A stretch of DNA of 64,000 nucleotides from a virus (taxonomy: Duplodnaviria > Caudoviricetes). The position numbers and the translations under genes are program-made. This document shows positions 2,202-38,766 of this stretch, one piece after another. The notes under the pieces were generated by a model. It saw only the letters and a program-made list of their open reading frames with translations. It was not told the DNA's origin and did no database searches. The number at the start of each line of letters is the position of its first letter. The stretch's first letter is position 1. Location of the stretch: the IMG/VR virus record IMGVR_UViG_3300005973_000002; one strand, written 5' to 3'.

Positions 2202-2268
2202 CAATAGTCGGATTTTTCCTTTATCTATTCGTAACCCATACTTATTCATGTTGCCTAAGAGGACCAAC

Positions 2269-3180
2269 ATGGATTTGAAAAAGATCATTGAGACTTCAGT
2301 AAAGGAGTCCTTGAGAAAGTCAGGAAAGCTTCCTGAAAGCAACAGAACTCAGAAGCCAAAGCTTCAAGAGGCTGTTAAAAAGCCACAGCCAGTTCTGAAG
2401 GAAGCACTTGTAGCAACACCTCAATCATTCAATCTTACAACTGAGCGACTTTCTGAAGAAACAAAACGAGCACACGAACAACTTTATCAGGGTTATGTTG
2501 AGAAATTCAATAGGTCAAGCTCTGGACTTGATGCTGTTAACATTCATGATGCAAACGCAAATCGAAGTGATTACAGATCACTAAAAAATGATGAAACCTA
2601 TAATCTCAATGCTATGAAGCTTCACGAGCTTTATTTCAACAACATCTCTGATTTGTCATCAGAGATTGGAGTTGATTCTCTCCCCTACATGCGTCTTTCA
2701 AGGGATTTTGGTACATTTGAAAAATGGCAGTTTGACTTCATGGCTGCTTGCAAATCAGCTAGAAACGGTTGGGGACTTGTTGTTTACGAACCATATAAAG
2801 GCGTTTACATGAACGTTATTGTTGACCTTCATAATGTAAACATTCCATTGGGCACCATTCCTGTGTTAGTAATAGACATGTGGGAACATGCTTATTACAA
2901 CGATTATCAAAACAATAAAGATGATTATCTTGTTGCAATGATGCGAGAAATAAACTGGAACGTAGTAGAAGCTAGGATGGTTTTAGCAGAACGTTCAGAT
3001 TTAAGTGCTCTTTACATGATTAAACCTGTTTATAACATGGAACCTAAAAAGATGCTAGATACTGCCACCTCTCCACCCATTGACCGAGTAACTACTTCGG
3101 GACAAGTGGAAGTACCTAGCACTTCACCACCTGGACCTGAAGTAATTGCACCAAATCTTAGACGGGAGCCACAGCAATGA
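2269..3180 (+). CDS. sod: Fe/Mn superoxide dismutase family protein with basic N-terminal extension
   Basis: HxxLYxGYV, LHELYF and DMWEHAYY metal-ligand motifs; ATG 2269 follows AAGAGGA SD. Confidence 0.85.
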   Translation: MDLKKIIETSVKESLRKSGKLPESNRTQKPKLQEAVKKPQPVLKEALVATPQSFNLTTERLSEETKRAHEQLYQGYVEKFNRSSSGLDAVNIHDANANRSDYRSLKNDETYNLNAMKLHELYFNNISDLSSEIGVDSLPYMRLSRDFGTFEKWQFDFMAACKSARNGWGLVVYEPYKGVYMNVIVDLHNVNIPLGTIPVLVIDMWEHAYYNDYQNNKDDYLVAMMREINWNVVEARMVLAERSDLSALYMIKPVYNMEPKKMLDTATSPPIDRVTTSGQVEVPSTSPPGPEVIAPNLRREPQQ

Positions 3181-3860
3181 AGAACACCCAAAATCTCAAG
3201 AGGCTCTTGGAGCAACTTCTTAATGAAGCCGAACCAGTTGAAAGACCTAAGTCCATGGCTGACTTTGCGCCAACTGAAGATAAGCCCGTTTCGTTGGATC
3301 AGGCCATAGATCGCTATTTTGTCCAGTATGAACGTGAATCTATTCCTACCAGTGAAATGTTTGAAAGTAATGTAAGCAAGCTAATTGGATATCTTTTTGA
3401 ACAGGATATAGAAGAACCAGAGGGCGAAGACGTTGGAGCAGGTGATGAAGGTGGGCTTGACATTGACGCTCCAGCCGGTGATTTGGGTCTTGGAGCTGAT
3501 GCTGATCCAGCAGGCGGCGAAGACCTTGGGTTTGGCGATGATGCAACCCCACCAGCAGGTGAAGGAGATGACGCCGAGCAACCTGTGGTAAACACGCCGC
3601 AAATAAACCTACAAGACTTTACAAGAAGCGTTGCTAGACTTGTCAACAATGCACAATCTTTAATAGATTTTAGAACGCTTATCTTGAACAGAGCTGAAGC
3701 TTACATCAGAAGCAACTACAATGAAAGAACGGCTAATGAAATGATGAGCATTCTTGATAACCAGTGGGATCTAAGGCCAGAATCTGTAGAGACTAGCTCA
3801 ACTCCTTCTTCAGAATATCCTCAACCACGAACGGCGGTCACCGGCCCCATGGGTGGATAA
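3177..3860 (+). CDS. acidic hypothetical protein with LKRLLEQLLNEA leader (probable virion/prohead protein)
   Basis: 227-aa ORF, D/E/G/A-rich central linker, start overlaps upstream stop. Confidence 0.75.
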   Translation: MKNTQNLKRLLEQLLNEAEPVERPKSMADFAPTEDKPVSLDQAIDRYFVQYERESIPTSEMFESNVSKLIGYLFEQDIEEPEGEDVGAGDEGGLDIDAPAGDLGLGADADPAGGEDLGFGDDATPPAGEGDDAEQPVVNTPQINLQDFTRSVARLVNNAQSLIDFRTLILNRAEAYIRSNYNERTANEMMSILDNQWDLRPESVETSSTPSSEYPQPRTAVTGPMGG

Positions 3861-10927: not shown

Positions 10928-11946
10928 ACCATAAAACAATGCGACCTTATATTTTTATTGATGGTCTTAACGTTTTCATTCGCCACTATCTTGTAAACGA
11001 AACCCTGAACTCAAAAAGTGAGCCCATTGGGGGTGCTGTTGGCTTTTTGAAATTTGTTGATTACATAACCCGAGTAATGACTCCCTCGAAAGTCTTTGTG
11101 GTTTGGGAGTCTGGTGGAGGTTCGGCAAGACGTCGAAGCATATTCAAAGAGTACAAAAAAGATCGAGGCAAAATAAAAGAATTAAAAAAGATTCACAACG
11201 GAACAGCATCGATTCGAGATCAACTTGCTAATGATGAAGAGTGTAAGATAAAGCAGCTTTCACTTATCTACAAGCTTTTGAAAAACACGCCAGTGTGTCA
11301 GGTGTTCGTTAGTGGAACTGAATGTGATGACATCATTGCATATCTTGTAAAACACCAATTTAGTAATAATGGTGACATCGAAAAAATTGTCGTATCAGGT
11401 GATAAAGACTTCTATCAGCTACTTGATGATGATACCGTAAAGATTTACGATCCTGCTCGTAAAACGCTCTTAGACGGTGATTGGGTATTTAAGAAGTTCG
11501 GCATAGCTCCAAGAAACTTTTGTTTGGCCAGGGCTCTTGTAGGCGATAAGAGCGACAACATTGAAGGTGTTCCAGGGGTTGGCCTAAAGACTGTTGCAAA
11601 ACGTTTTCCCGATGTTGCCGATCGAACTCGTGATTTAAATGTTGATGACATATTGAAAACATGCGATGAACAAATAACATCAAAAGCTAAACAAAAGGTT
11701 TTCAAACAGATCAAGGAATCCGAGTCGATAGTCCGACGAAATTGGAAGTTGATGTTTCTGTCATCGAACATGTTGTCCGGAAAAGAGATATCAAAAATCA
11801 ATTATGCAGTTGAGAGTCACGAGCCTAAGATGAATAAAGTAAATCTCATCAAGGAAGTGATAGCTAATGGCATTTCAATTGCATTTGATTACGATACATT
11901 CTCAACTCAAATGAGAATGATGGCAAGTGTTAGCGACTCTGAATGA
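10924..11946 (+). CDS. 5'-3' exonuclease / T4 RNase H-like flap nuclease
   Basis: IDGLN, ECDD, SGDKDFYQL, GDKSDNIEGVPGVGLKT motifs. Confidence 0.93.
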   Translation: MNHKTMRPYIFIDGLNVFIRHYLVNETLNSKSEPIGGAVGFLKFVDYITRVMTPSKVFVVWESGGGSARRRSIFKEYKKDRGKIKELKKIHNGTASIRDQLANDEECKIKQLSLIYKLLKNTPVCQVFVSGTECDDIIAYLVKHQFSNNGDIEKIVVSGDKDFYQLLDDDTVKIYDPARKTLLDGDWVFKKFGIAPRNFCLARALVGDKSDNIEGVPGVGLKTVAKRFPDVADRTRDLNVDDILKTCDEQITSKAKQKVFKQIKESESIVRRNWKLMFLSSNMLSGKEISKINYAVESHEPKMNKVNLIKEVIANGISIAFDYDTFSTQMRMMASVSDSE

Positions 11947-12478
11947 TTTCTATTATCTTTTCGCCAGAATTAGCCAAGAGTAATTGAACCCCAAAATGTA
12001 ATGGATTTGGCAAATTTTTTAACTCAAACCGGTCTGCCGAGGAACTTTCCCAATTTAACGAAGGCTCAAATTCGGAAAGAACCACACCAATAAAGTTATA
12101 GTATTTGAAGTTGCCTGCTTTAAAAACATGAGCAGGTATCAAACGAATAGAACCCGAGTAACCGAGTTCTTCTTTTGCCTCTCTTGTGGCAGCTGAACTT
12201 GGTGATTCGCTTTCCCTGTCGATCTTTCCTCCAGGGATACCACACGTGCCAGGCTCATTTACATATTTGCTTCGAAGAGTCAATAATAAACGTCCAGTGT
12301 CTTTAGCAATGAGAAGAATCCCAGCTCCACGATTACCCCAGAATCTCGGATCATTGCCATGTGTAGCATGGTACTCGCCCTCTTTATCAGGAAGAAGGTG
12401 TGATTCGTCACTGTCAGAAATTTCTTCAAGAAATTTAAAAAGTGCGATTTCTATTAACTGTTTTAGTTTTGCACTCAC
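11930..12478 (-). CDS. Nudix hydrolase with LKQLIE..FLEE leader
   Basis: Nudix box GGKID...AATREAKEELG. Confidence 0.9.
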   Translation of the reverse strand: MSAKLKQLIEIALFKFLEEISDSDESHLLPDKEGEYHATHGNDPRFWGNRGAGILLIAKDTGRLLLTLRSKYVNEPGTCGIPGGKIDRESESPSSAATREAKEELGYSGSIRLIPAHVFKAGNFKYYNFIGVVLSEFEPSLNWESSSADRFELKNLPNPLHFGVQLLLANSGEKIIEIIQSR

Positions 12479-14118: not shown

Positions 14119-17100
14119 ATGGAGAAAAAAATGGTAACTTATGAAGAGGCTTTGAAAGAATCACTTGCATACTTCAACGGAGACGATTTAGCGGCGCAAG
14201 TCTTTCTTAAGAAGTATGCTTTACAGACGCCGGAAGGTGTTTATATGGAAAAAACGCCTGAAGATATGCACCGTAGGCTAGCAAAAGAGTTTGCAAGAAT
14301 TGAAGCCAAATACGAAAACCCGTTAAGTGAAGAAAAAATATACTCGTATTTGAAAAATTTTAAATATATAGTTCCGCAAGGGTCGCCAATGGCAGGTGTT
14401 GGCAACCCATACCAAGTGATGTCACTTTCTAATTGTTTTGTTATTGAATCTCCATATGATTCTTATGGTGGTATTTGCAAGACTGATCAAGAACAAGCAC
14501 AATTGATGAAACGTCGTGGTGGGGTTGGCTTTGACATTTCTTCAATTCGACCAAAAGGGTTGTTAACAGCTAATGCCGCAAAAACAACCGATGGCATTGG
14601 GTTGTTCATGGAAAGATATTCCAACACCTGCCGGGAAGTTGCACAGGGCGGTCGCCGAGGCGCATTAATGTTAACAATTTCGGTACACCATCCTGAGATT
14701 CGTACATTTGTAAACATTAAACGAGACCTTGGAAAAGTTACAGGTGCAAATATTTCAGTTCGCCTCTCTGATGAATTCATGCAAGCTGTTAAAGACGACA
14801 AAGACGTCGAATTACGTTGGCCTGTTGAAGAAAAGAAAAATCCCTCAGTCAAAGGCAGAGTCAACGCAAGACAACTTTGGCATGAAATAATTGAATCAGC
14901 CCATGCTAGCGCAGAGCCTGGACTTTTATTTTGGGACACTGTCAGGAACTGGTCTCCTGCTGACGCTTATGAAAAACTCGGATTTGGTACAACTTCCACC
15001 AATCCGTGTGGCGAAATCACCCTTTCTCCTTATGATTCTTGCCGACTTTTGCTGGTAAATGTTGTTTCTTTCGTTAAAGAACCTTTTACCAGCAAGGCAG
15101 AAATTGATTGGAAATTGTTTGCCGAAGTTGTGCAAGCTGCTCAAAAAATGATGGACGATATCGTCGATCTTGAACTTGAGTGTATTGACAAAATTCTTGA
15201 CAAAATTGAAAAGGACCCGGAGCCAGACGACGTCAAAGCTTTAGAAAAAGCTCTTTGGAACAAAATAAAGCAGTCAGCAGCTGACGGAAGAAGAACCGGA
15301 CTTGGAGTTACAGCCATTGGTGATGCGTTGGCTGCACTCAACATTCGTTACGGAAGCGATGAATCCGTTAAAATGGTAAATGAAATTTATAAGAATCTTG
15401 CAATTAATTCCTACCGTTCGTCGGTACGTATGGCTAAAGAACGTGGCGCCTTTCCTGTGTATGATTATGAGCTTGAAAGAAATCATCCATTTATCAATAG
15501 AATAATGGATGAAGATAAAGAACTAAGAAAAATGTGGGAAAAGTATGGCAGGAGAAACATTGCAAATACTACGACAGCACCAGCTGGTTCTGTCTCAGTT
15601 TTAACACAAACCACATCGGGAATTGAGCCAGCCTTTCTTCTTTCATACACCAGAAGACGAAAAATTAATCCAGATGATGTAGATGCAAGAGTTGATTTCG
15701 TTGATGACCTTGGTGATAAATGGCAAGAATACAAGGTCTATCACCATGGATTTAAAAAATGGATGGAGGTTACCGGAAAATCAAACCCAGAAGAAAGTCC
15801 ATATCATGGTGCAACCTCTAATGATATCAACTGGGTTAATAAAGTTCGAGCCCAGGCAGCAGCCCAAAAATGGATTTGTCATTCAATTTCTAATTGTGTC
15901 TCCGCCGATACGTCCATAATGACAAACCAAGGACTTTATAAAATAGAAGAGCTAGCTCAGCACGCTAAAGTTAAAAAATTTGCTCCAATCAAACAGGATG
16001 AACTTTATTCTAGGAACAAAAATGGTCTGGTCGCAAAGATAACCGAAGCATACAATAATGGGGTTGAACAAACTTTGCGAATTCAATGCGTTGGGGGTTA
16101 TGAAATTCAATGCACTCCAAGACATCAACTGGTGACGCTCAATTTAAATGGAGATAGAATATGGAAACGAGCAGACGAACTATCCCCAGGAGATATTGTT
16201 GTTGGGCAAAAGGGACATCAACTTTGGAATTCTAAGGTTGGCGAACAAACATTAGAGGAGCTGAACGGCAGCAAGTTCAATTTTGTTAAAAACATGCAAC
16301 ACAAATCAATTAAATTTCCAAAGAAAATGAGCAAAAAGCTTGCCCGACTTCTTGGTTATATGTGCTCTGATGGTTTTGTAACCAAAACCGGAATTGGTCT
16401 TTCGCAAAGTAGAAACAATGTAAGCGAAGATTTCCAGAATTTGATTGCTGATTTGTTTGTATTACAAACTACTGTCACAAAGGATAAACGTTCGAAAACA
16501 TTACATTCTTATCGGGTTAATTCAAAGGAACTTTCACAATTTTTCCAATGGCTTGGCATAACCAAGCATGACAAAATTGAAGTTCCAAGAGTTGTGCGCC
16601 TTGCTGGTAAAAGCCATGTCAAAGAATTCATTAAGGGATTGACCTTGGATGGCCATGTTACTAAGGACAATTTGTGTGTTGCAACATCAATTAGTAAACC
16701 AATGTTGCAGCAAGTTCAAATGTTGTTGTTGAACATGGGCATAGTGGCAAATCTGATCAAAACTCACAATGGTGGAAAAGTTACGTTCCCATCTGGAAAT
16801 GTAAGCAATACACAACCGGCTTGGTCTTTATATATTTCAGACAGTGCCGAAGCTGCACGTTTCTTACGAGCAGTCGGTTTTGCAGAGACAGATAAAACCA
16901 ACAAGGCAAAAACTCTCTTTAAGAAATCTTCTAGACTAAAATTGAAGGGCGAGGTACCTGATTTTGAATTTCGTAAGAAGTTCCGACAAGGTCCGCTTAA
17001 AAAACTCAAATCAAATTCATTGTATGAAAAGTTTCAGAGTCTTTCTCACCCATCAAAGGATGGTATGAAGCTTTCACGTGAGACGCTTTTGGAAATGGCA

Positions 17101-17943
17101 GACGTGGGTCTGAAATTGCCGGAAGAATTTATATCACAAAATTGGATTTTTTGGACAATCAAATCTGTTGAAGATGCAGGAATGGTTCAAACTTATGACC
17201 TTTCTGTTCCAAACGGAAATGCATACCTGGCCAATGGGTTTACTTCACATAACACAACAAACGTGCCTGAAGATACTACCATAGAAACCATTAAAAACAT
17301 TTACATGACTGGGTGGGAAACGGGATGCAAGGGTGTAACTGTTTACCGTGATAAGAGTCGTAGCGGTGTTCTTGTTAGCTCTTCTTCTACTTCACGTGAA
17401 AAAAAGAATTTCTCTGAGAATCATGCACCGAAGCGCCCAAAAGTTCTTCCGTGCGACATTTACCATGTTCAAGTAAAAGGTGAGAAGTGGAATTTCTTTG
17501 TTGGATTGTATGAAGACAAACCTTATGAAATCTTTGCAGGAAGAGCAAAACACATTCATCTGCCAAGAAGTCGAAAGAATGGTGTTATAAAAAAGAATGG
17601 TCATTACAATCTTTACACTGGAGATGGTGAAAATGAATTGAAGATTGAAGACTTGGCCACGGTTTTTGAAAATCCAACTGAAAGTGCCTTTACTAGAACC
17701 GTATCTCTTTCATTAAGACATGGTGTTCCAATCCAATATCTTGTTGAACAAATAGAAAAGGGAGCTGATAAAGAAAATGATATGTTCTCTCTTTCAAAGG
17801 GATTGATGAGAATTCTTAAAAGGTACATTAAGGATGGCACCAAACCTTCAACAAAGAAATGTCCAGAATGTGGTTCAGCAGAACTCGCATACCAAGAAGG
17901 ATGTTTGACTTGTAAGTCATGTGGTTATTCTAAATGTGGGTAA
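14119..17943 (+). CDS. nrdJ: class II (B12-dependent) ribonucleotide reductase containing an intein
   Basis: SLSNCFV, GGVG, TNPCGE, SCRL, TTAPAGS, TSGIEP, GCKGVTVYRD and C-terminal CPECG...CxxCGYSKC. Confidence 0.95.
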   Translation: MEKKMVTYEEALKESLAYFNGDDLAAQVFLKKYALQTPEGVYMEKTPEDMHRRLAKEFARIEAKYENPLSEEKIYSYLKNFKYIVPQGSPMAGVGNPYQVMSLSNCFVIESPYDSYGGICKTDQEQAQLMKRRGGVGFDISSIRPKGLLTANAAKTTDGIGLFMERYSNTCREVAQGGRRGALMLTISVHHPEIRTFVNIKRDLGKVTGANISVRLSDEFMQAVKDDKDVELRWPVEEKKNPSVKGRVNARQLWHEIIESAHASAEPGLLFWDTVRNWSPADAYEKLGFGTTSTNPCGEITLSPYDSCRLLLVNVVSFVKEPFTSKAEIDWKLFAEVVQAAQKMMDDIVDLELECIDKILDKIEKDPEPDDVKALEKALWNKIKQSAADGRRTGLGVTAIGDALAALNIRYGSDESVKMVNEIYKNLAINSYRSSVRMAKERGAFPVYDYELERNHPFINRIMDEDKELRKMWEKYGRRNIANTTTAPAGSVSVLTQTTSGIEPAFLLSYTRRRKINPDDVDARVDFVDDLGDKWQEYKVYHHGFKKWMEVTGKSNPEESPYHGATSNDINWVNKVRAQAAAQKWICHSISNCVSADTSIMTNQGLYKIEELAQHAKVKKFAPIKQDELYSRNKNGLVAKITEAYNNGVEQTLRIQCVGGYEIQCTPRHQLVTLNLNGDRIWKRADELSPGDIVVGQKGHQLWNSKVGEQTLEELNGSKFNFVKNMQHKSIKFPKKMSKKLARLLGYMCSDGFVTKTGIGLSQSRNNVSEDFQNLIADLFVLQTTVTKDKRSKTLHSYRVNSKELSQFFQWLGITKHDKIEVPRVVRLAGKSHVKEFIKGLTLDGHVTKDNLCVATSISKPMLQQVQMLLLNMGIVANLIKTHNGGKVTFPSGNVSNTQPAWSLYISDSAEAARFLRAVGFAETDKTNKAKTLFKKSSRLKLKGEVPDFEFRKKFRQGPLKKLKSNSLYEKFQSLSHPSKDGMKLSRETLLEMADVGLKLPEEFISQNWIFWTIKSVEDAGMVQTYDLSVPNGNAYLANGFTSHNTTNVPEDTTIETIKNIYMTGWETGCKGVTVYRDKSRSGVLVSSSSTSREKKNFSENHAPKRPKVLPCDIYHVQVKGEKWNFFVGLYEDKPYEIFAGRAKHIHLPRSRKNGVIKKNGHYNLYTGDGENELKIEDLATVFENPTESAFTRTVSLSLRHGVPIQYLVEQIEKGADKENDMFSLSKGLMRILKRYIKDGTKPSTKKCPECGSAELAYQEGCLTCKSCGYSKCG
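15895..17253 (+). mobile_element. LAGLIDADG intein (453 aa) in RNR
   Basis: HSISN|CVSADT ... YDLSV...NGFTSHN|TTNVP; LLGYMCSDG and FIKGLTLDG endonuclease motifs. Confidence 0.95.
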
Positions 17944-18030: not shown

Positions 18031-18885
18031 GTGGGAAGGTGGCATTTTTTTAGTAGTCTAACGTGTATCGCTACACTAATAAGTCTGACCCTTGTGATGG
18101 GGTGTGGTAGTTCACTATCCTATCTATCCCGTCCAGGCAATCCAGAACAATATGAGCATTACAGAAATGCTACCGTGGCACTCGTAGAACTTACCTCGGG
18201 TGGGAACATGGTTGGTCCAAATTGTTCTGGTTTTTTTATTTCTCCTAGACGATTAGTGACCGCCGAACACTGTGTTGTGGATCAAGGACAGGTGCTTGAA
18301 TTTGCACCAGGCGTAGGACGCAGAATAATACCCGTAACACCTGAACCAACTATAGGTCGTGAAATTCTTTTCGTGTCATACGAAGATGAAGAAGACTTTT
18401 TCAGCAGGGAACACAGACCAAGCCGAGGTCCAAACTACCATCGTTCAAAAGTTATTGCTGTTGATACAGAAAACGATGTTGCCATCCTAGAATTAATTGA
18501 CGGCGAAGAGGATTGGGTAAGTTGGTTTGAGATGAGAAATCTTGAACAAGAGCCTGTGCTTGTAGGTGAAAGAGTCTTTGCCATCAGTGATCCCGTTGGG
18601 CAAACTTTTATGCTCGGCGAAGGAATCATTTCCAGAGTAAGAGTGATAGAAAACAAGGTCAGAATTTTTCATCAAGTGAGAGTAGGGCCAGGTTCTTCAG
18701 GAAGTGTCCTTTTGGATAGACAAGCAAGAGTTATAGGTGTAAACGTAGCTATTTCTCGTAACAACATATTGACAATAACCATACCTGCTACATACATCCA
18801 AGCTCAATTGAATACCCTTGAAACCCAGCGTGAGTCTCAAACAGTAGATGAAAATGCTGGACTTTCGGAGGATTTACATGAATAG
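18031..18885 (+). CDS. trypsin-like (S1) serine protease lipoprotein
   Basis: lipobox VMG|C; TAEHC, NDVAIL, GPGSSGS catalytic triad. Confidence 0.9.
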   Translation: MGRWHFFSSLTCIATLISLTLVMGCGSSLSYLSRPGNPEQYEHYRNATVALVELTSGGNMVGPNCSGFFISPRRLVTAEHCVVDQGQVLEFAPGVGRRIIPVTPEPTIGREILFVSYEDEEDFFSREHRPSRGPNYHRSKVIAVDTENDVAILELIDGEEDWVSWFEMRNLEQEPVLVGERVFAISDPVGQTFMLGEGIISRVRVIENKVRIFHQVRVGPGSSGSVLLDRQARVIGVNVAISRNNILTITIPATYIQAQLNTLETQRESQTVDENAGLSEDLHE

Positions 18886-19750
18886 ATTTTTATCATTTTT
18901 GTTTGCTTTTATTTTATCGGTTGGATGCTCAAATTCATCAGTTGGTAGTTATAGATACATTGACAATATCAATAATGTAGTGCATCTACAGCACTCTGTT
19001 GTTGTTATTGTAAACAAAAATGAAAATGGTAGATTGAGCACTCCACAATGTACAGCCTTTTATGTGTCACCTAGACGATTAGCAACAGCTCTTCACTGTG
19101 TTCAAAATTCCACTGCTCAAATGGCTACAGTAGCACCAGGTATTATAATACAAATTAATGAAGATGCAGAATCTGAACCAGTAATTGGTCGTGAAGTCTT
19201 ATTTGTAGATTGGGAAGAACATCGTAGGTTTATTCAAAATTTTGATTCAAATAGCGATCCAATAGCAAGGCATTCAACAGTTGTTGGAGTTGATCCCGAA
19301 AATGATATTGCGCTAATTGAGTTAAAAGAAGAAGAAGAAAGTTCAAGACATTGGCTTTCACTTGCCACTGATGTTAATGTAGGTGAAAAAACCTACACCA
19401 TGGGTATGCCGAGTAATCAAATATGGTTGTTGTCTGAGGGAATTGTTTCCTCAATTAGGGTTTTTCCAGACGAACGGCGTCGCATTTTATTTCAAGGCTT
19501 GGTAGCCCCAGGGGCTTCTGGTAGCCCTGTTATTGATAACTTTGGGCATGTTGTTGGTGTCACCATACAATACGTTAGAGAAGTACCGGATCTGGGGGTT
19601 GCGTCGTCGAGTCATGATTTGTTACAGCTAATGGAGCAAAACATTCAAACCGTTATTACTTTACCAATGAACAATTTAGAAGAACAAGAAGACCCAACAA
19701 CTTGCGATTCAAGTGTTTCTTCTTGTTCATTGCCAGATTCTGAAGAATAG
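18878..19750 (+). CDS. second trypsin-like serine protease lipoprotein (paralog)
   Basis: lipobox SVG|C; TALHC, NDIALI, PGASGSP; GGAGG SD before ATG 18878. Confidence 0.9.
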   Translation: MNRFLSFLFAFILSVGCSNSSVGSYRYIDNINNVVHLQHSVVVIVNKNENGRLSTPQCTAFYVSPRRLATALHCVQNSTAQMATVAPGIIIQINEDAESEPVIGREVLFVDWEEHRRFIQNFDSNSDPIARHSTVVGVDPENDIALIELKEEEESSRHWLSLATDVNVGEKTYTMGMPSNQIWLLSEGIVSSIRVFPDERRRILFQGLVAPGASGSPVIDNFGHVVGVTIQYVREVPDLGVASSSHDLLQLMEQNIQTVITLPMNNLEEQEDPTTCDSSVSSCSLPDSEE

Positions 19751-19758
19751 TTATATGC

Positions 19759-20445
19759 GTGATTTACACGTCTAATAGCTTACTTGAAACTTTAATAACA
19801 AAAGAAGTTTCTTCAATTCTTGAATCATTCAGAGGCTTTGATTTAGAAAAGTTAAAGCGATTAGAATATCCAAGAGAAATGACAGAATATGCCAGAAAAT
19901 ATCTTCCTAGGCTCGGCGCTGGTTCCTCTAGAGAAGTTTTCGGTTGGAAAGCTGGTAAAGTAATAAAGATAGTTCATTCCCATCATAACACTTTTCAAAA
20001 TAAAGAAGAGATTGGAGTGTATGTCAATAATCCAAATTTGCGACCGTATCTTGCCAAGATATTCGATTTCGATCAGCAGAATTATTATTGGATAATAGCT
20101 GAAGGTGTGCAGGTTATCATTGATAATGCACACTTACGTAACAAATTTACTTTACCCGAACAAATATTAACTCAATTTATGCTTCGGATGAGGAAAAACA
20201 ATCTTCCGTTTGAGGAAGTTTTAGAAGAGGCACTTGAAAGCTATAATGAAAGCTATGCTGATTTCTACGTAAAGGGTCCAAAATCTGTATCTAAAGAAGA
20301 TTTAAATTCGCTTGATTTAGAGCTGTATAAAAAATTTTTTGACTTAACTAGAATGGGCATCGATGATATCGATCGCTATGACCACTGGGGCATGACAACA
20401 TCTGGACGCATTGTTGTAGTTGATTATGGATTGACGAATGAATAA
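19759..20445 (+). CDS. protein-kinase-like fold protein
   Basis: LGAGSSREVF Gly loop, KVIKI, helix-C Glu, D..D.WG catalytic loop, VVDYG. Confidence 0.75.
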   Translation: MIYTSNSLLETLITKEVSSILESFRGFDLEKLKRLEYPREMTEYARKYLPRLGAGSSREVFGWKAGKVIKIVHSHHNTFQNKEEIGVYVNNPNLRPYLAKIFDFDQQNYYWIIAEGVQVIIDNAHLRNKFTLPEQILTQFMLRMRKNNLPFEEVLEEALESYNESYADFYVKGPKSVSKEDLNSLDLELYKKFFDLTRMGIDDIDRYDHWGMTTSGRIVVVDYGLTNE

Positions 20446-21379
20446 TATTAAACTAAAAAGCCTAATTGAAAGTTTGGCTACGGACATTATTTTTGAAGCT
20501 ATCAATAAGTCGCCAAATGTATTTTGGCTGGTGACAGGAGTTAGTAATAGAAATCCCGAACGTATGGAGCAGCTTGCATCGGGAATCTTGCCAGGCGTTA
20601 AAGGCATTTCCGACAATAAAAAGATTCTCATGCATTTCCTTGGTATAGGAAGGAATGCAGTTTTAGTCATGCCTGCTTCAAAAGTTATTGAATTAAACGA
20701 CATATACAAAATTGACTACGAAGAACCTGAAGATTTGCTTGACAACGATATGATGCTGTTGTCAAGAATTTGGAACAAAGAACATGGAACCCCGATGGGT
20801 CGTCGAGGTGTTTTAGTAAATTTATCAGATAGGATTGCTGAAATTTTGAAGAAGAATTCAGACAGGAACATTTCTTCTATTGGCTCGGCAATTACAGGCG
20901 GTTACATTTCTCTGGAATCTAATGTACCGGAAATAAACAGTGTTACAGATCTTGCGGAGCATGTTAGAGAACGAGTTTTGGAAGGTTCTAACCAATTTAA
21001 CAGAGAAAAAAGAGAACGACTTCCTTTACAGTGGTGGAAACGAGTGGTTTCTGACGCTGTAATTGCTGGTATGCGCACATATCGCTCCGAAGGTGAGTGG
21101 GTAGTTGAAAATGATACACTCAGGGTTCCCGAAGGTTCTAGGTTGCTCGTAACGGTTACCAAACGTCCTCAAGATTTTCCTGGAGAGGTGCGAGCGCAAT
21201 TAAAAATGGGTGAGTTCCCAGGCTTTAAAGGAATAACACAAGCGCATATTTATTCCGGGCATATCATCGCAACTGTTTACAAGTATGGTTTAGATAAACG
21301 ATATGATGTAAGGTTTATAGATGCAAAGAAGTTTGAAGAAATTCAACTTAAACTACAGATGAAGCACCAATACGGATGA
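20438..21379 (+). CDS. hypothetical protein with LKSLIE..IFEA leader
   Basis: 313-aa ORF. Confidence 0.75.
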   Translation: MNNIKLKSLIESLATDIIFEAINKSPNVFWLVTGVSNRNPERMEQLASGILPGVKGISDNKKILMHFLGIGRNAVLVMPASKVIELNDIYKIDYEEPEDLLDNDMMLLSRIWNKEHGTPMGRRGVLVNLSDRIAEILKKNSDRNISSIGSAITGGYISLESNVPEINSVTDLAEHVRERVLEGSNQFNREKRERLPLQWWKRVVSDAVIAGMRTYRSEGEWVVENDTLRVPEGSRLLVTVTKRPQDFPGEVRAQLKMGEFPGFKGITQAHIYSGHIIATVYKYGLDKRYDVRFIDAKKFEEIQLKLQMKHQYG

Positions 21380-22044
21380 AACATTTAATCAAAATGATGG
21401 TAGAACAAGTTCTTGACGAACTTATCAGTTCAAAGGAGCCTACGGTTTACTTTGACATGGATGGTGTGCTGGCTGATTTCCAGGGTAAAGTTGAGCAAGA
21501 CATTGCCTATCAACGAGCCAAACAAGAATTTGAAAATTTAGCAGCCAAAGCTAAGCCGGAATTGCTTTCAGTACATACTGACGATTTAAAGGACATCTTC
21601 AAAGGCCGACAAGAAGATCCGGTGATGGCTAAATTAAAAAAGCTTTGGAATAAAAAACGCAATGCTTCATATGCCGTTGCTGGAAAACTTGGTCATTTTA
21701 AAAATCTTGATATTTTACCTGGCGCTAAAGAAATGATGATGGCAGCAGCTGATCTAACTAGAAAAAAGCCACACATCCTTACAGCTCCGATGGAAAGTCA
21801 TTCCAGATGCGAAGAAGAGAAAAGAGAGTGGGTTGACGAGCATTTAGCAGGTTTGTTTGATCAGTTTCATTGCACCCAGGACAAACATAATTTTGCCAAC
21901 AATGAGTGGGATATTCTTATTGATGACCGACCAAAATATGTAAATAAGTTCCGTGACGCCGGGGGTACTGCAATACTACATGTTGATCCAGGTGAAACTA
22001 TACAAAAGCTGCAAGAGTTGATTGCTAATTTGAAGGCGCAATAG
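21376..22044 (+). CDS. HAD 5'(3')-deoxyribonucleotidase (NT5C-like) with leader
   Basis: FDMDGVLADF, ILTAP, K..W, ILIDD motifs. Confidence 0.88.
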   Translation: MKHLIKMMVEQVLDELISSKEPTVYFDMDGVLADFQGKVEQDIAYQRAKQEFENLAAKAKPELLSVHTDDLKDIFKGRQEDPVMAKLKKLWNKKRNASYAVAGKLGHFKNLDILPGAKEMMMAAADLTRKKPHILTAPMESHSRCEEEKREWVDEHLAGLFDQFHCTQDKHNFANNEWDILIDDRPKYVNKFRDAGGTAILHVDPGETIQKLQELIANLKAQ

Positions 22045-22064
22045 CGTGAAGGGTATTTGTCTAC

Positions 22065-23921
22065 ATGACCAAGTCACTTGAAAAATTGATTGAAGAGCTT
22101 GCAAAGGAAGCGTTGGATGAGGCTAATGCTATTTCTGCTGGTGGTGGTTCTTTACAACCTTCAGGCCAAGTAAGTGGAACCGGGGGAAACCCTCTTGGGA
22201 GAGATATGTCTGATCAACATGAAATAATGTGGTCGGGCGACGAGCCAGAAAAAAAGAAAAGAAGTTTAAAAGAAGAGGTTCTTGAGGAAGACGATCTCGA
22301 CGAGATAAGCGCTATTGGCACTGGAGCTGTTGTAGGTTATACCTTACCTCTTGGTATGAAACCTGACCATGAAACAATGGGGACCAAGAAGAAGAAAAAG
22401 AAAAGACCTAGACGCTGGTATGACGTGCATAAGGAATCACGAAATCGAACGAGGAAAAACGAACAGGTTCGAATTAAAGTATATAATGAAAAAAAAGAAA
22501 AAGTCGCTACAGCAGCAATAAAGTTTGATGGTAAAATTGCATTTTTAGATAGTGTATTCGTTGTCCCTGAGTATCATAAACAAGGGATTGGAAAACAACT
22601 TTACAAGGAAGCCAATGTTGAAGCAAAAAAACAATTTGGAGTTCCTTTAACATCAAGTGATTTCTTGACTCCGCATTCAAAAAAGATGTGGTATCACTTA
22701 TCCAAAGAAGGCGCTGCCAACAAGGTTAGTGAATCTTATCAAATGAAAGAAAGAGAGCTTGATGAGCAAGTTAGGATGCCTGGCAAATACAATTGGGGGC
22801 TGCATCCAATAGAAGGGCCACACTGGTGGAAGCATTTTTCAAAAACAGCAGACAAGATGGTTTTTGCACCTCACGCACTGACTCAAGAAGCATATGAAGA
22901 GCATAATTTGGACATTGAAGACAAAGGTATATGGGGACCAGCATCAATGTTGCGTGGACCTTCCAGACTGGTACTAGCCTACCCTAAAGAAAAAAAGATA
23001 GATATTCTTACAAACCTTAGGGATCCCAGACTAGCTTACCTACTTTCTACGAGTTTGAAATATATTCCAGAGCTTGCCGACTTCAAAGTTTATTTGGCAT
23101 CAAAATCCCCCATGTATGATGAAGACAAATTTTTGGGTAACCCTAAAGAGTTGTTAGCAAAGATTAAAGTAATTTCTGGAAGATCGCCACAATGGTCACG
23201 AGACGATGATAAAGTAGAATACACTGAGTTCAAATTTGAAGTCTTGGAAGATGTAGATGATGTTGATTGGTATCATGCAACAAGCCTTAAAAACTTAGAT
23301 TCAATAAAATCAAAAGGACTATTAACATCAAAGGAGTTTGAACAAGGCACTGGTTGGACACAGCTCAATCTACATTTGCAAGACGCAGTATATTTGACCT
23401 CTGATGAAGACTATGCACTAAGAATTGCTGAAACATTATTGGCTAGAACTGGAGTACCAGGTCTTGTCTTGAAGGTTTCAGGGCAAGCCCTAAAAGATAA
23501 AGAAAAGCTTATTGTTGATGAAGACCGTCTGAGAAATCAATATGACAGTATGTTATCCGCCGGTGAATTATTGGCTGGCATGCCTGATTATTTAAGTTCT
23601 GTGTTGGATTCGAAACTCGAAGCAGTTGGATACAAAGGAAAGATTGATCCTGGGTTCATTTCACCAGCATATGTTGTTGATGTTGAAAGAGATGAAGAGG
23701 GTAATTTTGCGGGCGAAGAAGCTGACATCTACACTTGGCAAGAGTGGAAAGCAAACTCAAGAAAGGTTGATGAAGAGTTTATTGGAAAACGAGGTGGTGT
23801 AAGCTATTTCCAAATTGGGGGTTCTTTGCCTGACCATCTATACAATAGAACCGATGATGGCAAACCAACGAGAGATCCGGGGGTTGTAGGACTTAAAAGA
23901 CCTAAAAAAAAGAAAAAATGA
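22065..23921 (+). CDS. multidomain protein: Gly/Lys repeats + GNAT + unknown + Tpt1/DarT-like ART fold
   Basis: VFVVPEYHKQGIGKQLY (GNAT motif A); WYHATSLKNLDSIKSKGL...VYLT...YKGKIDP (ART-like). Confidence 0.7.
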   Translation: MTKSLEKLIEELAKEALDEANAISAGGGSLQPSGQVSGTGGNPLGRDMSDQHEIMWSGDEPEKKKRSLKEEVLEEDDLDEISAIGTGAVVGYTLPLGMKPDHETMGTKKKKKKRPRRWYDVHKESRNRTRKNEQVRIKVYNEKKEKVATAAIKFDGKIAFLDSVFVVPEYHKQGIGKQLYKEANVEAKKQFGVPLTSSDFLTPHSKKMWYHLSKEGAANKVSESYQMKERELDEQVRMPGKYNWGLHPIEGPHWWKHFSKTADKMVFAPHALTQEAYEEHNLDIEDKGIWGPASMLRGPSRLVLAYPKEKKIDILTNLRDPRLAYLLSTSLKYIPELADFKVYLASKSPMYDEDKFLGNPKELLAKIKVISGRSPQWSRDDDKVEYTEFKFEVLEDVDDVDWYHATSLKNLDSIKSKGLLTSKEFEQGTGWTQLNLHLQDAVYLTSDEDYALRIAETLLARTGVPGLVLKVSGQALKDKEKLIVDEDRLRNQYDSMLSAGELLAGMPDYLSSVLDSKLEAVGYKGKIDPGFISPAYVVDVERDEEGNFAGEEADIYTWQEWKANSRKVDEEFIGKRGGVSYFQIGGSLPDHLYNRTDDGKPTRDPGVVGLKRPKKKKK

Positions 23922-24135
23922 AGTCTGAAGGGCTTTGGCACTCTTGTGAAACCGTTTGGAAAGAATGAAGTGTGCCAAAAATTTTGACATTGCAACCAAA
24001 TACATTCATGAATAGAAATTTATTCATATTTTTATGAACGGCAGTTTGAGTATATGTAATATTATAGTTGGGACATAGCATCATGATGTGTGTGGAATCC
24101 TGACGTTGTTCAAAGTTTTTCTCTACTTAAAGAGG

Positions 24136-25944
24136 ATGAAGCCGAGTCTTAAATCGATATTTTTTGGTGAGGGAATTGTACCGCAAGGTGATGCTGATGA
24201 GCGTCCGCTCCATGGGGCTCCTGTTTATTACTATCCTACAGGTCGTTCTCTGCCAAAAAAACTCCAGGATCAAGGGGCTTTGAAAAAGGCCAGGAAATGG
24301 AATGAAGATAACAGTCTTCTTGACGTTGATAACCTTGAGAAAAAAACTAAAAAGAAGAAGCGCTGGTACGCCTCTGAGGCGAAAAGCAAGAACACAAGTG
24401 CAAATTCAAACGAAACTTCTCTCAAAGAGTTTAATGCTTTATCAACTGCGGCAATCGAAGCTTCTAATATCCCACCAGGAGCTTGGGATAGAGACGATGC
24501 TCCTCGTATTGACCAAAAAAAGATCAAGAAAAATAAAGAATATGTTAAAAAACTAGACGTAACTGAAGTTGAAGGTAAAAACGGGATTGATGTTCACATC
24601 GATCACATGGATCCGCAATATAAAAGACAAGTAAGTATCGTTAAAAATCCCGAAGACCCAATTGAATGGAAAGAACCTGAATATCTTGATGGTCGAGGTG
24701 AGCATCGTATTTCACAATTGGGCTACGCCAAGATTGCTGATCGTCAAGGTGATCTTAAGATGGATGTATATCTGGCGCCCTACGATCCAAATTGGCGGCG
24801 CTCTGAAGATATGATGCAGCAGGTAATCAAGCATTGGATCGCAAATCATGGCAACCGTGATCGTATTATGCCTGAACCAGATGCTACAATGTTTGTTTCA
24901 ATCAAAGAAGAATGGGAATCACTCAAGAACGAACTTTTTTCTGAGGCTGCTCTTGACAGCAGTGAAAACATCGAGCAACATTTGAAAAAACGAGGCTTGG
25001 ACCCTGAAAAAACAAAGGTTATTATAGACATTGCTACAAACACCGCAGTGTTTCTGCTCTATAACCTCTCGGGTAAATTAATTGGTTACCAACAGTATTT
25101 GCCATCAGGGTCGAAAAAAACCAAGGCTGGCGAGGATCCAAGATTAGCTAAATATTTTACCTGGATTTCACGTGAAGGTGAAACAAACAAAAGAAAAGCA
25201 TTAGGCGTATGGGGACTTGAAAGTGTTGATGAGCGCCCATTTATTTTTATTACCGAAGGCATCTTTGATGCTATAAAACTTCAAAACGAAGGTTTGCCTG
25301 CGATAGCATCTTTGACCAATGATCCAAAGCTCCTTCGTCCTTGGTTGAAAGCAATGCAAAAGTACATAATTGTCGTTGCTGATAACGATGCAGCAGGAAG
25401 AAAGCTTAAAAAGCTTGGCGACCTTGCTCTAACAACACCGGAACCATACAAAGATCTTGGAGAGATGCCACAAAACAAAGTCAGGGATTGGTTGTCGACA
25501 GCGGTACCAACCTCAATTTTAGAAAATAAAAATATTGCAAATGAATTGTGGCGTACTCTAAAAGAGTATTACCCGCACGACCCAGCCGTCAATTACCACG
25601 AAACTGAACCAGGTGTTGAAGGTGAATTTTACTCGATGACTGAAACATATTACCATGGAACAAATCGAGAATTTGCTCCGGGTGATTACATCTTGCCGCC
25701 TGCTGAGACTGGTGAAATTTCTGAAAAGGGAAGAAAAAAGAACTTGGACAAGGTGTTTTTCACTTTGGACAAAGGCAGTGCAAAGATATATGCCGGTCGA
25801 GCTACCAAGTCCTTTGGTACTGGCAGTCCTAATATTTACAAGGTTCAACCTATTGGTTCGATCGAATGGCTTAACAAACAAAAAGGCACAACTGTTTTGA
25901 TGGCACCAATGGCAAAAGTCATTGAAAAGGTTAGTAATCAGTAG
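24136..25944 (+). CDS. multidomain protein: unknown N-terminal part + DnaG-type Toprim + Arr-like ADP-ribosyltransferase
   Basis: ITEGIFDA, VADNDAAG, KDLGE (Toprim); YYHGT..F.PGD.ILP...VFFT...IYKVQP.G (Arr-like); AGAGG SD before ATG 24136. Confidence 0.75.
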   Translation: MKPSLKSIFFGEGIVPQGDADERPLHGAPVYYYPTGRSLPKKLQDQGALKKARKWNEDNSLLDVDNLEKKTKKKKRWYASEAKSKNTSANSNETSLKEFNALSTAAIEASNIPPGAWDRDDAPRIDQKKIKKNKEYVKKLDVTEVEGKNGIDVHIDHMDPQYKRQVSIVKNPEDPIEWKEPEYLDGRGEHRISQLGYAKIADRQGDLKMDVYLAPYDPNWRRSEDMMQQVIKHWIANHGNRDRIMPEPDATMFVSIKEEWESLKNELFSEAALDSSENIEQHLKKRGLDPEKTKVIIDIATNTAVFLLYNLSGKLIGYQQYLPSGSKKTKAGEDPRLAKYFTWISREGETNKRKALGVWGLESVDERPFIFITEGIFDAIKLQNEGLPAIASLTNDPKLLRPWLKAMQKYIIVVADNDAAGRKLKKLGDLALTTPEPYKDLGEMPQNKVRDWLSTAVPTSILENKNIANELWRTLKEYYPHDPAVNYHETEPGVEGEFYSMTETYYHGTNREFAPGDYILPPAETGEISEKGRKKNLDKVFFTLDKGSAKIYAGRATKSFGTGSPNIYKVQPIGSIEWLNKQKGTTVLMAPMAKVIEKVSNQ

Positions 25945-26632
25945 TTTCCAACCCCGCCTTTTCTATAATTGACAATCCGACATTGGAAAGAAGAACTGTT
26001 TGGTTTTTCGTATTTATTTCTCCAACATAAACCAAAGTAGTTGGTTCTGTTAGCCAACTTTCTTTTGTTTCGTCAGCATCTGGAACACAGTGTTCGAAGT
26101 CACTGGAAAGATAGTGCGGCAATCCAGCGGGCGTTACTTTACCACGACCCCGAGGGCCTCTGTCCAACCACTGTCTAACGGTTGCGTTAGCTGGTGCTTT
26201 AATTTCACCAGCCTCAAGTTTGTCTTCGAGCCATTTTGACATCGCAAAATCGGTATTGTACTGCATGTCATCAGTTTTAGGACAACCTTCTTGTTTTGCT
26301 TTAACATCCGGTTGACCAAATCCTGCATATAAATGTAGCCATTCACCTGGGGCATGTTGTCCTTCAATAGATTCAAGTGCATTTTTCACGTCAGGTGCTA
26401 CAGAAATTCGACTCGTAAAATCATCTTCTATAATGTTCCCTTCATCATCTTCGTAAGGATAGCGTGGCAATCTTGGAGTAAAGGTGAACGAATCCTCGGT
26501 AGACAGCTTTGCAGATGATATGTGAAAAAACCCGAATACTTTCTTAAGTTTTTCAGCGTCTACCAATTGTGGCGATATTCCTTCATAAAGAAAACGTTTC
26601 CACTTCTCTTCCCACGATTGTTGTTTACGCAT
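25931..26632 (-). CDS. hypothetical protein, possible ART fold
   Basis: 233-aa ORF; FHIS, FTPR.P, RISVA, VPDA..T.E.W pattern. Confidence 0.6.
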   Translation of the reverse strand: MRKQQSWEEKWKRFLYEGISPQLVDAEKLKKVFGFFHISSAKLSTEDSFTFTPRLPRYPYEDDEGNIIEDDFTSRISVAPDVKNALESIEGQHAPGEWLHLYAGFGQPDVKAKQEGCPKTDDMQYNTDFAMSKWLEDKLEAGEIKAPANATVRQWLDRGPRGRGKVTPAGLPHYLSSDFEHCVPDADETKESWLTEPTTLVYVGEINTKNQTVLLSNVGLSIIEKAGLETTDY

Positions 26633-33045: not shown

Positions 33046-33289
33046 AAATATGCCAATGTAGATGGTCTGGTATATTTCTTTGCTGGGTTCTTAATTCAAT
33101 ATTTTTACCAAAAACTCTTTGACTGACATCAACCAGATGATAAATAATTTTTGGCGTTATTCTAACTGTATGTTTGCGAAGAACTATCATGGGAACTCTA
33201 CATGAAAGACAGTCACAAATGACAATCAGATCGTCTTCATAGTACCAACGTGTTTTTTGATCTAAGATACAGAGATCGCATTCTTTCAT
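33029..33289 (-). CDS. small HIT-family protein
   Basis: CxxC, CxxC and HLHWH histidine triad. Confidence 0.75.
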   Translation of the reverse strand: MKECDLCILDQKTRWYYEDDLIVICDCLSCRVPMIVLRKHTVRITPKIIYHLVDVSQRVFGKNIELRTQQRNIPDHLHWHIFNLLE

Positions 33290-33825
33290 AACAAATCCAA
33301 GTAATCAAGGCCGGCATATGCACAGTCAAACCCTCTTATACTTCCATTCTTAATGTTATTTCTGAATTTACCAAGTGGCCACTTAACTACTTGCAAAAAT
33401 TCATTTTCATCAAGTTCTAATCCATCAACTTTGCGACAGTTGTGTGCAACGAACATGTGTCGCATTCCAGTAGAATATGGATTGTAATTTTGCTTACCAA
33501 GGTAATGAATCTCACCTTCATATCCGGTTTCTTCTTTCAGCTCTCGGATGGCAGATTCCATAGGATCTTCACCCTTTTCCATCCCACCACCTGGTAATTC
33601 TATACAATAGTTTTCAACACCAGGTCTAAATTGCCTTACCGTGAGAACTTTATTGTCATCTGTTACTGCAAAAATTTGGACGGAATCTTTATTGTCATCG
33701 ATAAAAAAGTTCTCGATGATGCCATTTGGTAAACGAAATGTCTTAACAATAAAGTCTTTATCGTACCCAGAAAGGTTATCCTTGATTTTATACTTTTTTT
33801 CGTTTATTTTTTTATAGTCGCCCAT
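33286..33825 (-). CDS. Nudix hydrolase, ADP-ribose pyrophosphatase (NudF-like)
   Basis: VRQFRPG...ELPGG...A.RELKEETGY, ELDENEFL.V. Confidence 0.9.
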   Translation of the reverse strand: MGDYKKINEKKYKIKDNLSGYDKDFIVKTFRLPNGIIENFFIDDNKDSVQIFAVTDDNKVLTVRQFRPGVENYCIELPGGGMEKGEDPMESAIRELKEETGYEGEIHYLGKQNYNPYSTGMRHMFVAHNCRKVDGLELDENEFLQVVKWPLGKFRNNIKNGSIRGFDCAYAGLDYLDLL

Positions 33826-33899
33826 GATATCACTTCTCACTGTAAATAGAGTTTTATTGTCGGTTTCAACAAATTGAAACGTGTTCTATACTTTCTATC

Positions 33900-38133: not shown

Positions 38134-38766
38134 ATGACCAAAACTAAATACCAGCTCTTTGTGGACATGGATGGAGTCCTTGTAGATTACATGGGTGGCG
38201 TTTTGCCGACCATGAATGAATTTGTTGCAGAGGTCGCAGCAGCTCCGAATCGCTTTAAGACAGAAAAACCAGACCTTTATAAGGCTGCAAAGAAAGCAAT
38301 TGCCGAAATGGGTGGTAATGTTGATGAAGGCTACGTTGGTACTGAAATAAAATACCACGATGTCGGCAAGGGAACGGAAAAGAAAAAGGTTCGTTCTTTG
38401 ATGTACACCCTTGTTTCTAACAACTACCAGTGGTGGGTTAATCTTGATTGGATGCCAGATGGCCGTGAACTATGGAATCACATCAAAAGACATAATCCAA
38501 TTATTCTTACAGGACCCCAAGGTCCCAATTCCAAAAAGGGTAAGAAAGATTGGGTAAATCGTGAGCTTGGTCTGGGGAAAGATCGAATTATTATCACGCA
38601 TACAAAGCATGAAGAAGTTCGCCCAATGCTTAAAAAAGGAATTATGCCAGTTTTGATCGACGATCTACCCAAATACGTCGTTCCCTTTAGAAATGCGGGT
38701 GGTATTTGCATTCATCACATCAACACCGAGCAAACAATTCGAGAACTGGAAGCGTTTGGATTTTAG
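38134..38766 (+). CDS. second HAD 5'(3')-deoxyribonucleotidase (no leader)
   Basis: FVDMDGVLVD, ILTG, KKDW, LIDD...F..AGG motifs. Confidence 0.9.
   Translation: MTKTKYQLFVDMDGVLVDYMGGVLPTMNEFVAEVAAAPNRFKTEKPDLYKAAKKAIAEMGGNVDEGYVGTEIKYHDVGKGTEKKKVRSLMYTLVSNNYQWWVNLDWMPDGRELWNHIKRHNPIILTGPQGPNSKKGKKDWVNRELGLGKDRIIITHTKHEEVRPMLKKGIMPVLIDDLPKYVVPFRNAGGICIHHINTEQTIRELEAFGF

Follow-up and report, generated by a model that had tools for sequence, protein, structure and literature searches.

In bacteriophage T4, internal proteins are directed into the prohead by a short capsid-targeting sequence (CTS), MKTYQEFIAE, that is cut once (PMC8442874). A CTS of 10 amino acids is enough for packaging, with residues 4 and 7 serving targeting and residues 8 and 10 processing, and prohead cleavage takes place after L/I-x-E (PMC9026906). 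The internal proteins of T-even phages are diverse defense proteins with only the CTS in common (PMC3012670), and Alt of T4, an ADP-ribosyltransferase (ART), is packaged as well and processed at both ends (PMC9026906). The large capsids of phiKZ, 201phi2-1 and SPN3US hold about 50 protein species, many of them N-terminally processed after Glu at redundant sites (PMC9026906; PMC7411985, PMC10052503), and giant-phage cleavage follows a short motif ending in Glu (PMC9026906). Which proteins enter the cell with the phage DNA determines the opening minutes of infection, and this set is known for hardly any uncultured phage. Here we analyzed a 64,000-nucleotide stretch of phage DNA (hereafter the window; IMG/VR record IMGVR_UViG_3300005973_000002), in which otherwise unrelated proteins open with a leader of the core L-(K/E)-x-(L/I)-(L/I)-E. 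An earlier note on this DNA had listed nine carriers of such a leader and had proposed that the phage packages and injects them. We found that the leader is under peptide-level selection and portable among unrelated proteins, and we favor its reading as a putative head-targeting propeptide of the T4 type.

Unrelated proteins share an N-terminal leader

The strict pattern L-[KE]-x-[LI]-[LI]-E has six matches among all six-frame open reading frames (ORFs) of at least 80 amino acids in the window, and five of the six lie 2-6 residues past a start codon. These five belong to a superoxide dismutase (SOD), a Nudix hydrolase and three proteins designated here by their positions, 3177, 20438 and 22065 (Table 1). 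In all five core proteins the leader core is found at residues 3-12, and the tagged bodies that could be assigned fall in different Pfam families. With a position-specific scoring matrix (PSSM) built in leave-one-out fashion, each core member ranked between 0 and 15 among the 19,314 protein positions of the window. The leader set is therefore real, with five core members confirmed, but it is narrower than first stated. A looser pattern, derived beforehand from the tag of T4 (hydrophobic-x-x-hydrophobic-hydrophobic-(x)-E within the first 10 positions), is enriched as well. Eight window proteins have it where 2.1 would be expected (p 0.0012), as do 13 of about 76 proteins of the flanks, where 2.9 would be expected (p 5e-6). 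The flanking DNA was reached through ten exact-protein look-ups, and about 150 kb were examined in all (window plus about 85 kb of flanks).

The similarity resides in the peptide. Codons and upstream DNA are unrelated between leader copies, so conservation acts on the peptide and not on a DNA repeat; the same grounds speak against the alternatives that the similarity stems from a repeat in the DNA or from an RNA operator, and both were rejected. A Sec, Tat or lipoprotein signal peptide was likewise ruled out by composition, as the longest hydrophobic runs of the leaders are 2-4 residues, their net charge is +1 to -3 and no h-region of at least 10 residues follows a basic n-region. As the earlier note had stated for replication genes, the leader is absent from gp32, RecA, dUTPase, FEN, DnaB, ribonucleotide reductase (RNR) and ThyX. 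A second NT5C-like gene and a second Nudix gene, both without leader, serve as internal controls. On the other hand, ending in (I/L/F)-x-E, by which the leader had originally been marked, proved unspecific: a hydrophobic-x-E site is present at residues 8-25 in 27 of the 64 window proteins, and this half of the motif was thus given no weight alone.

Chance resemblance of Glu/Leu-rich amphipathic N-terminal helices has to be considered, given that the motif is short, that hydrophobic-x-E is common and that two of the claimed members fail (see below). Against it stand the leave-one-out ranks, all obtained at N-termini, the invariance of the leader across orthologs at 58-76% identity while the linker varies, and the match to the capsid protein described below. 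For the five core members this explanation is effectively refuted, and we give it almost no credence.

Confirmed, probable and rejected members of the set

The SOD carries its leader (LKKIIE) at residues 3-8, followed by a linker of about 60 amino acids; its true start is probably Met38 (nt 2269) of a longer ORF, 2158-3180. The gene of protein 3177 overlaps the SOD stop codon, and its product opens with the leader LKRLLEQLLNE, continues with a disordered middle that is acidic and rich in Gly/Asp, and is helical toward the C-terminus. In its acidic composition it looks like a prohead-core protein. In the Nudix hydrolase, LKQLIE at residues 5-10 is part of a helix (2-20) separated by a linker (21-45) from a fold that begins at about residue 50. 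AlphaFold2 (AF2) gave predicted local distance difference test (pLDDT) scores of 62-71 for the helix and above 90 for the body, with residues 21-45 unstructured, and the model thus depicts the leader as a separate helix tied to the fold by an unstructured linker. Protein 20438 has LKSLIE at residues 6-11 and then IFE-A at 18-21; no family was found for it in Pfam/PHROG scans and no usable fold lead came from the Atlas search.

Two further proteins were added with lower certainty. The deoxyribonucleotidase 21376 has an N-terminal extension of about 20 amino acids ahead of its DMDG motif, in which its own leader is weak (PSSM rank 1408). Its orthologs have a clear leader of the same type, with the consensus LKxLVExLVExEL, and these sequences confirm 21376 as a putative carrier. 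The candidate leader of the kinase-like protein 19759 (residues 8-22, PSSM rank 62) needs a GTG start, the other gene call beginning at Met41. Three paralogs beside the sheath genes keep the N-terminal stretch, a helix, so the longer form of 19759 is likely and the protein is a probable carrier. Its family is virus-only, and the Atlas search weakly linked it with a T7-kinase-like family. Searches of 19759, 22065 and 24136 against PDB sequences returned only marginal GNAT, primase and Arr matches. In the flanking DNA, three intact or split phrog_4301 copies precede a pair of adjacent tail-sheath paralogs of about 1,010 amino acids each.

Of the nine proteins listed originally, SOD, 3177, Nudix, 20438 and 22065 were thus retained by strict motif and PSSM, the nucleotidase through its orthologs and the kinase as probable, while two fell away: the proteins encoded at 25931-26632 and 41356-41712, both on the minus strand, bear no resemblance to the leader by PSSM. 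The RFLYEG leader claimed for the former is not supported, and its N-terminus, KWKRFLYEG, is only faintly like the RWxxLAG type described below. By inspection of its sequence, the Arr-like protein 24136 (Pfam Arr-ms at 25.5 bits, cut-off 25) has no convincing leader, whereas 22065 holds a predicted ART-fold domain together with the leader.

Table 1. Features discussed in the text. Positions refer to the window unless a flanking record (L008, L009 or L010) is named.
Feature	Position	Strand	Evidence
SOD, Fe/Mn superoxide dismutase	2269..3180	+	Pfam Sod_Fe_C 2.7e-22; strict motif; leave-one-out rank 2 of 19,314
227-aa protein 3177	3177..3860	+	strict motif, PSSM; no Pfam or PHROG family found
Nudix hydrolase	11930..12478	-	Pfam NUDIX 1.9e-10
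RNR large subunit split by intein with LAGLIDADG endonuclease domain	14119-17943	+	
Two tandem trypsin-like (S1) peptidases	18031-19750	+	
Kinase-like protein 19759, phrog_4301	19759..20445	+	PHROG 9.4e-11
313-aa protein 20438	20438..21379	+	strict motif, PSSM
5'(3')-deoxyribonucleotidase 21376 (NT5C/HAD)	21376..22044	+	Pfam NT5C 8.2e-13
618-aa multidomain cargo candidate 22065	22065..23921	+	Pfam GNAT families above cut-off; AF2/Foldseek
62-aa N-terminal module of 22065	22065..22250	+	alignment to capsid protein, profile search
Toprim/primase-like protein with C-terminal Arr-like ADP-ribosyltransferase, 24136	24136..25944	+	phrog_849 5e-31, phrog_2110 8e-26
Internal LKE-FNALS of 24136 (residues 96-103)	24421-24444		
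233-aa protein without assigned family	25931..26632	-	PSSM, site scan
Free-standing 66-aa ORF	32453-32653	+	71% identity over 38 aa to capsid residues 85-122, E 1e-18
Second Nudix, leaderless control	33286..33840	-	Pfam NUDIX 3.1e-16
NT5C/HAD paralog, leaderless control	38134..38766	+	DMDG motif from residue 11
TA[CT]TTA sites, examples	2239, 12492, 24124, 26643, 50315		
RWxxLAG genes	L008 598-969, 3981-4826, 7639-7851, 7853-8311, 8301-8774, 10034-10849		N-terminal motif
753-aa scaffold-like protein	L009 3903-6164		
Capsid protein, gp23 family	L009 6220-8142		PF07068 Gp23; phrog_138 2.8e-72; phmmer with T4 gp23 9e-31
Three intact or split phrog_4301 copies	L010 79-2353		
Two tail-sheath paralogs	L010 3722-6781 and 6838-9867		

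The leader recurs in the head gene cluster, and that of 22065 matches a probable capsid propeptide junction

A head gene cluster was located about 41-55 kb past the window end, on a walk that also met baseplate, neck and sheath genes. In order, it encodes a pair of sheath proteins, five small proteins, a scaffold-like protein of 753 amino acids that is acidic and coiled, and a capsid protein of the gp23 family. Two of the small proteins open with the leader. One of them, of 185 amino acids, starts with MTTIKQIIEEAVKEALD, which is almost the leader of 22065, and it is the top flanking match of an 8-column model trained on window leaders only; otherwise this model did not separate the leader subtypes of the flanks. 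Many other flanking genes have related leaders of the form MKIxKSxLRxxIxE. Six small genes about 36-53 kb past the window end start with a leader of another type, RWxxLAG(L/I)xxE. The scaffold-like protein ends in the same RWxxLAG motif (..NRWQVLAGIKKVD) and has ALIEEL near its N-terminus. By its position directly upstream of the capsid gene it is a candidate for the scaffolding core; no sequence match to T4 gp22 was found for it.

When the first 100 residues of the capsid protein were compared with all 140 proteins, the best match was the N-terminus of 22065 (E 4e-6). Residues 5-38 of 22065 and 46-79 of the capsid protein are 47% identical (pairwise E 8e-8). DNA identity over the same stretch is 48%, and 26% at third positions, which argues against recent recombination. 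The capsid segment ARLLENQ aligns with AKIFENQ of the T4 gp23 propeptide and runs into the segment aligned with the start of mature gp23, and residues 46-79 would accordingly span the end of the propeptide and the beginning of the mature chain. As the T4 cut site falls in an alignment gap, a cut after LLKE in this capsid protein is only inferred. Judged by alignment, the 22065 module is homologous to the propeptide/mature junction of the capsid protein. Two other resemblances to the capsid protein were noted. About 100 amino acids into the Toprim/ART protein 24136, an internal LKE-FNALS resembles the capsid junction LKE-TNALS; the likeness is not significant, and 24136 was not among the BLAST matches of the capsid N-terminus. 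The LKE-FNALS stretch could be an internal processing site. In addition, a free-standing ORF of 66 amino acids, far from the head cluster, matches the VSVQPMSLP..LFYLDY segment of the capsid protein and may be a capsid fragment, mimic or decoy.

The 22065 module constitutes a separate family. It begins with the leader helix, continues through LDE-A, where a cut is predicted, and closes with a Gly-rich stretch whose last residues are MWSGDEP. Behind it, 22065 has a GNAT acetyltransferase (residues 116-200, approximately), an ART-fold domain (about 400-540) and a basic tail that is conserved at the C-terminus. Searched as a profile against 1.84 billion representatives, the module gave 54 protein clusters with E<=1e-3; at least 7 of these clusters resemble false positives of repeat proteins. 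Within the matched proteins it stands at the N-terminus or between domains, NT5C being one of the domains that it follows. In fused proteins of related phages (P0202, P0205, P0209) the module is internal, behind NT5C domains, which suggests polyprotein-like cargo cut at repeated leader junctions. Homologs of 22065 are domain-shuffled, and the basic tail (residues 558-617) is common to otherwise different proteins. The C-terminal half of 22065 is a predicted ADP-ribosyltransferase fold. An AF2 model of residues 225-570 (pLDDT 76) was searched against the PDB with Foldseek, and the top 50 matches were all of ART fold, including pertussis S1-like proteins, KptA/Tpt1 and DarT1 (best E 3e-4, TM score by target about 0.4). 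The motifs WYHAT and YLT are found at residues 402 and 443.

Leaders are exchanged on constant enzyme bodies

Fifteen Nudix orthologs at 58-76% identity keep LKQLIE unchanged and the body from a conserved RFWGN..GAGIL onward, while the acidic linker varies. More distant orthologs start at the body or have short leaders close to that of T4, such as MKTFRQFLED and MNFRQYLES. NT5C homologs vary in a similar way. Of the 120 best, about 40 lack an extension; the present leader type is seen in about 23-30, a decapeptide like that of T4 (MKFDEFINE, for instance) in about 25 and an RxxxLAG leader in 13. As far as sequences tell, the leader is a detachable module. These patterns suggest a possible route for the evolution of such cargo, in which the propeptide junction of the capsid protein is copied and one leader is exchanged for another while the enzyme body stays the same. 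A Nudix ortholog is also carried by an unrelated phage contig (L012; JGI 3300028388, Ga0307031_1000170), on which 12 of 39 genes have a leader of its own, MKKLPKFxEINES / MK(K/R)LPKFxE(I)NES, and a further group of genes has xIKxFxxY at the N-terminus. We take L012, from its N-termini, to be another lineage-specific leader system.

These findings bear on where tagged proteins go. The leader might be a docking or oligomerization tag for some phage assembly other than the capsid interior, such as a replication/nucleotide complex, a membrane-proximal factory or the tail. Several tagged proteins, such as NT5C and Nudix, do have nucleotide substrates, a similar, looser T4-derived pattern stands at the start of the tape-measure protein (41777), and the prohead protease was not found in the roughly 150 kb examined. 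We nevertheless regard this as unlikely, as the tagged bodies are functionally unrelated (SOD, GNAT-ART, kinase-like, acidic disordered), core replication enzymes have no tag, the tag is present in the head cluster and agrees with the junction of the capsid propeptide, and decapeptides resembling the T4 CTS take its place in orthologs. It is also conceivable that tagged proteins reach the prohead core but act in assembly only, as fillers, size determinants or protease decoys that are degraded or expelled before DNA packaging, so that no injected arsenal would exist. Such a fate has a precedent in gp22, gp67 and gp68 of T4, which have similar N-termini and are destroyed (PMC9026906), and 3177 and the small head-cluster proteins look like acidic core proteins. 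Yet the SOD, Nudix box, HAD DxD, GNAT and ART fold are intact and are conserved along with a leader in many lineages, which makes mere filler hard to argue, and we consider a role confined to assembly distinctly unlikely.

A promoter-like motif precedes structural genes and several leader units

The sequence TA[CT]TTA is found within 60 nt (6-43 nt) upstream of 11 of the 64 window genes, against 1.7 expected. It precedes the units of SOD (TACTTA, 30 nt upstream of the start at 2269), Nudix, 24136 and the minus-strand gene 25931-26632 (TACTTA, 11 nt upstream), and none of the seven replication genes. It also precedes the capsid and gp25 (baseplate) genes outside the window and tail-fiber and amidase (endolysin) genes, and is probably a late promoter element of the phage. 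Genes with leader-like N-termini were associated with the motif (11/32 compared with 12/108, odds ratio 4.2, p 0.005).

Two tandem genes for trypsin-like (S1) peptidases immediately precede the leader block, with TATTTA 43 nt upstream of the first. Their presence raises the question of whether the leader could be a recognition site for a modifying or activating enzyme, either as a leader like those of ribosomally synthesized and post-translationally modified peptides (RiPPs) or as a zymogen propeptide cut by a non-head protease such as these. Beyond the vicinity of the two genes, the evidence points the other way. Both S1 proteases have lipoprotein signal peptides with clear lipoboxes and should therefore act outside the cytoplasm, the window proteins that were scanned yielded neither a radical-SAM/SPASM enzyme nor a maturase of another family, and the tagged proteins are large folded enzymes and not peptides. 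We hold this explanation to be very improbable.

A putative head-targeting propeptide

With moderate confidence, we interpret the leader as a T4-type head-targeting propeptide, probably cut by the prohead protease and expanded to many enzymes. The core L-K-x-L-I-E, at about residues 3-12, would be followed, usually 8-12 residues later, by a hydrophobic-x-Glu site. During prohead assembly the leader helix would dock the tagged protein onto the scaffolding core, and a gp21-type protease would cut after Glu, in the LIE core or at the later site. The enzyme body would stay in the capsid with the DNA and, by analogy with T4 IPI-III and Alt, would be ejected into the next host, where anti-defense roles may be envisaged. 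Predicted cargo comprises SOD, 3177, Nudix, 20438, NT5C, the GNAT and ART protein 22065 and probably the kinase-like 19759; six or seven unrelated leader enzymes would thus probably be carried in the virion. Support for head targeting comes from the gp23-family capsid, the leaders in the head cluster, the capsid-junction homology, the T4-CTS-like swaps and the promoter motif.

Several observations weigh against this interpretation. Prohead protease and portal genes were not found in the roughly 150 kb examined of the 461-kb contig; in particular, neither Pfam nor phmmer with T4 gp21 detected a gp21-family protease (Peptidase S77) in the window and flanks. A gp22 homolog was not found in the same DNA. 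The capsid homology is significant for the 22065-type module only: in hhalign, a generic leader profile fell on the same position of the capsid protein (residues 50-51) at a non-significant E of 0.43, and its comparison with the scaffold-like protein was not significant either. The hydrophobic-x-E half of the motif is commonly met by chance. NT5C and SOD, which are of housekeeping type, are unusual cargo, so another address is possible. Finally, late timing of TA[CT]TTA is assumed, and the motif also stands before leaderless genes, such as that of the second Nudix. The capsid targeting proposed in the earlier note is thus supported in part, by the junction homology, the head-cluster leaders and the T4-like swaps.

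A speculative and on balance doubtful extension is a two-sided address code copied from the capsid-scaffold contact. Leaders of the present type would mimic the last helix of the capsid propeptide together with the maturation site, those of the RWxxLAG type would mimic the scaffold C-terminus, and the two together would load well over 25 enzymes into one capsid. If this were true, leaders should co-vary with head genes in each lineage and the injected proteome of uncultured T4-like phages could be read from sequence. More generally, if the leader is a head address, it provides a rule for predicting from sequence which enzymes the 461-kb phage and its relatives package and inject, the predicted set including a superoxide dismutase, Nudix, a nucleotidase, an acetyltransferase/ADP-ribosyltransferase fusion and kinase-like proteins. 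With the leader as a natural tag, it could also become feasible to load large capsids with foreign proteins.

The source is an uncultured huge phage with T4-like modules

By exact-protein look-ups, the window was placed in a 461,030-bp metagenomic contig (ENA ERZ27249357, k141_87304), whose positions are obtained by adding 218,322 to those of the window. Copies on a 186-kb JGI contig and on the ENA contig are 99.99-100% identical across the overlaps compared, and the same proteins are also found on several Logan contigs. The window has a G+C content of 39%. Besides genes for gp32, RecA, dUTPase, FEN, DnaB, ThyX and a class II RNR whose large subunit is split by an intein, it encodes a T4-type baseplate protein, SegE-like homing endonucleases and a tape-measure-like protein and contains a glycan island. 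Further T4-type modules lie downstream of it (the gp23-family capsid protein, PF07068, gp13, gp25 and the two sheath genes). The source is thus an uncultured huge phage with T4-like modules, of the T4 and not the phiKZ lineage. In blastn and tblastn searches against 50,697 phage records, the leader block and several of its proteins returned nothing useful and no cultured relative of the phage was found; no relative of 22065 was found in the viral_contigs set.

Comparison with known systems

The closest described counterparts are the CTS of T4 IPI, IPII and IPIII and the propeptide of Alt. In both cases a short N-terminal tag stands on unrelated proteins of a phage with a gp23-type head. The leader shares with the T4 CTS hydrophobic residues at i, i+3 and i+4 followed by Glu at about residue 10, and its core LKxLIE contains L-I-E, an L/I-x-E site, at about residues 8-12. 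As with Alt, an ART-fold enzyme is among the predicted cargo. In contrast to the T4 CTS, the leader is longer (a helix of about 15-20 amino acids plus linker, consensus LKxLIE..LxE). Unlike the T4 internal proteins, the tagged proteins, as predicted cargo, are many more and are enzymatic instead of small and basic. The likeness extends to the T4 core proteins gp22, gp67 and gp21 and to the gp23 propeptide (delta piece), which have similar N-termini and L/I-x-E sites: in T4 records, gp22 begins with MLKEQLIAE-A and gp67 with MEGLIE-A, and gp21 contains LLIE-T. To the best of our knowledge, the reuse of a capsid-propeptide-like segment on enzymes has not been described for T4.

In phiKZ, 201phi2-1 and SPN3US, diverged gp21 homologs cut the propeptides of head and ejection proteins, and no shared linear targeting helix has been reported. 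The phiKZ-type cleavage motif has a small residue, (S/A/G)-x-E. Outside of tailed-phage internal proteins, the leader recalls encapsulin cargo-loading peptides and the coat-binding C-terminal helices of scaffold proteins such as that of P22, in that a short portable peptide sends diverse enzymes inside an HK97-fold shell. Encapsulin tags are usually C-terminal and uncleaved and have no sequence similarity to the leader described here.

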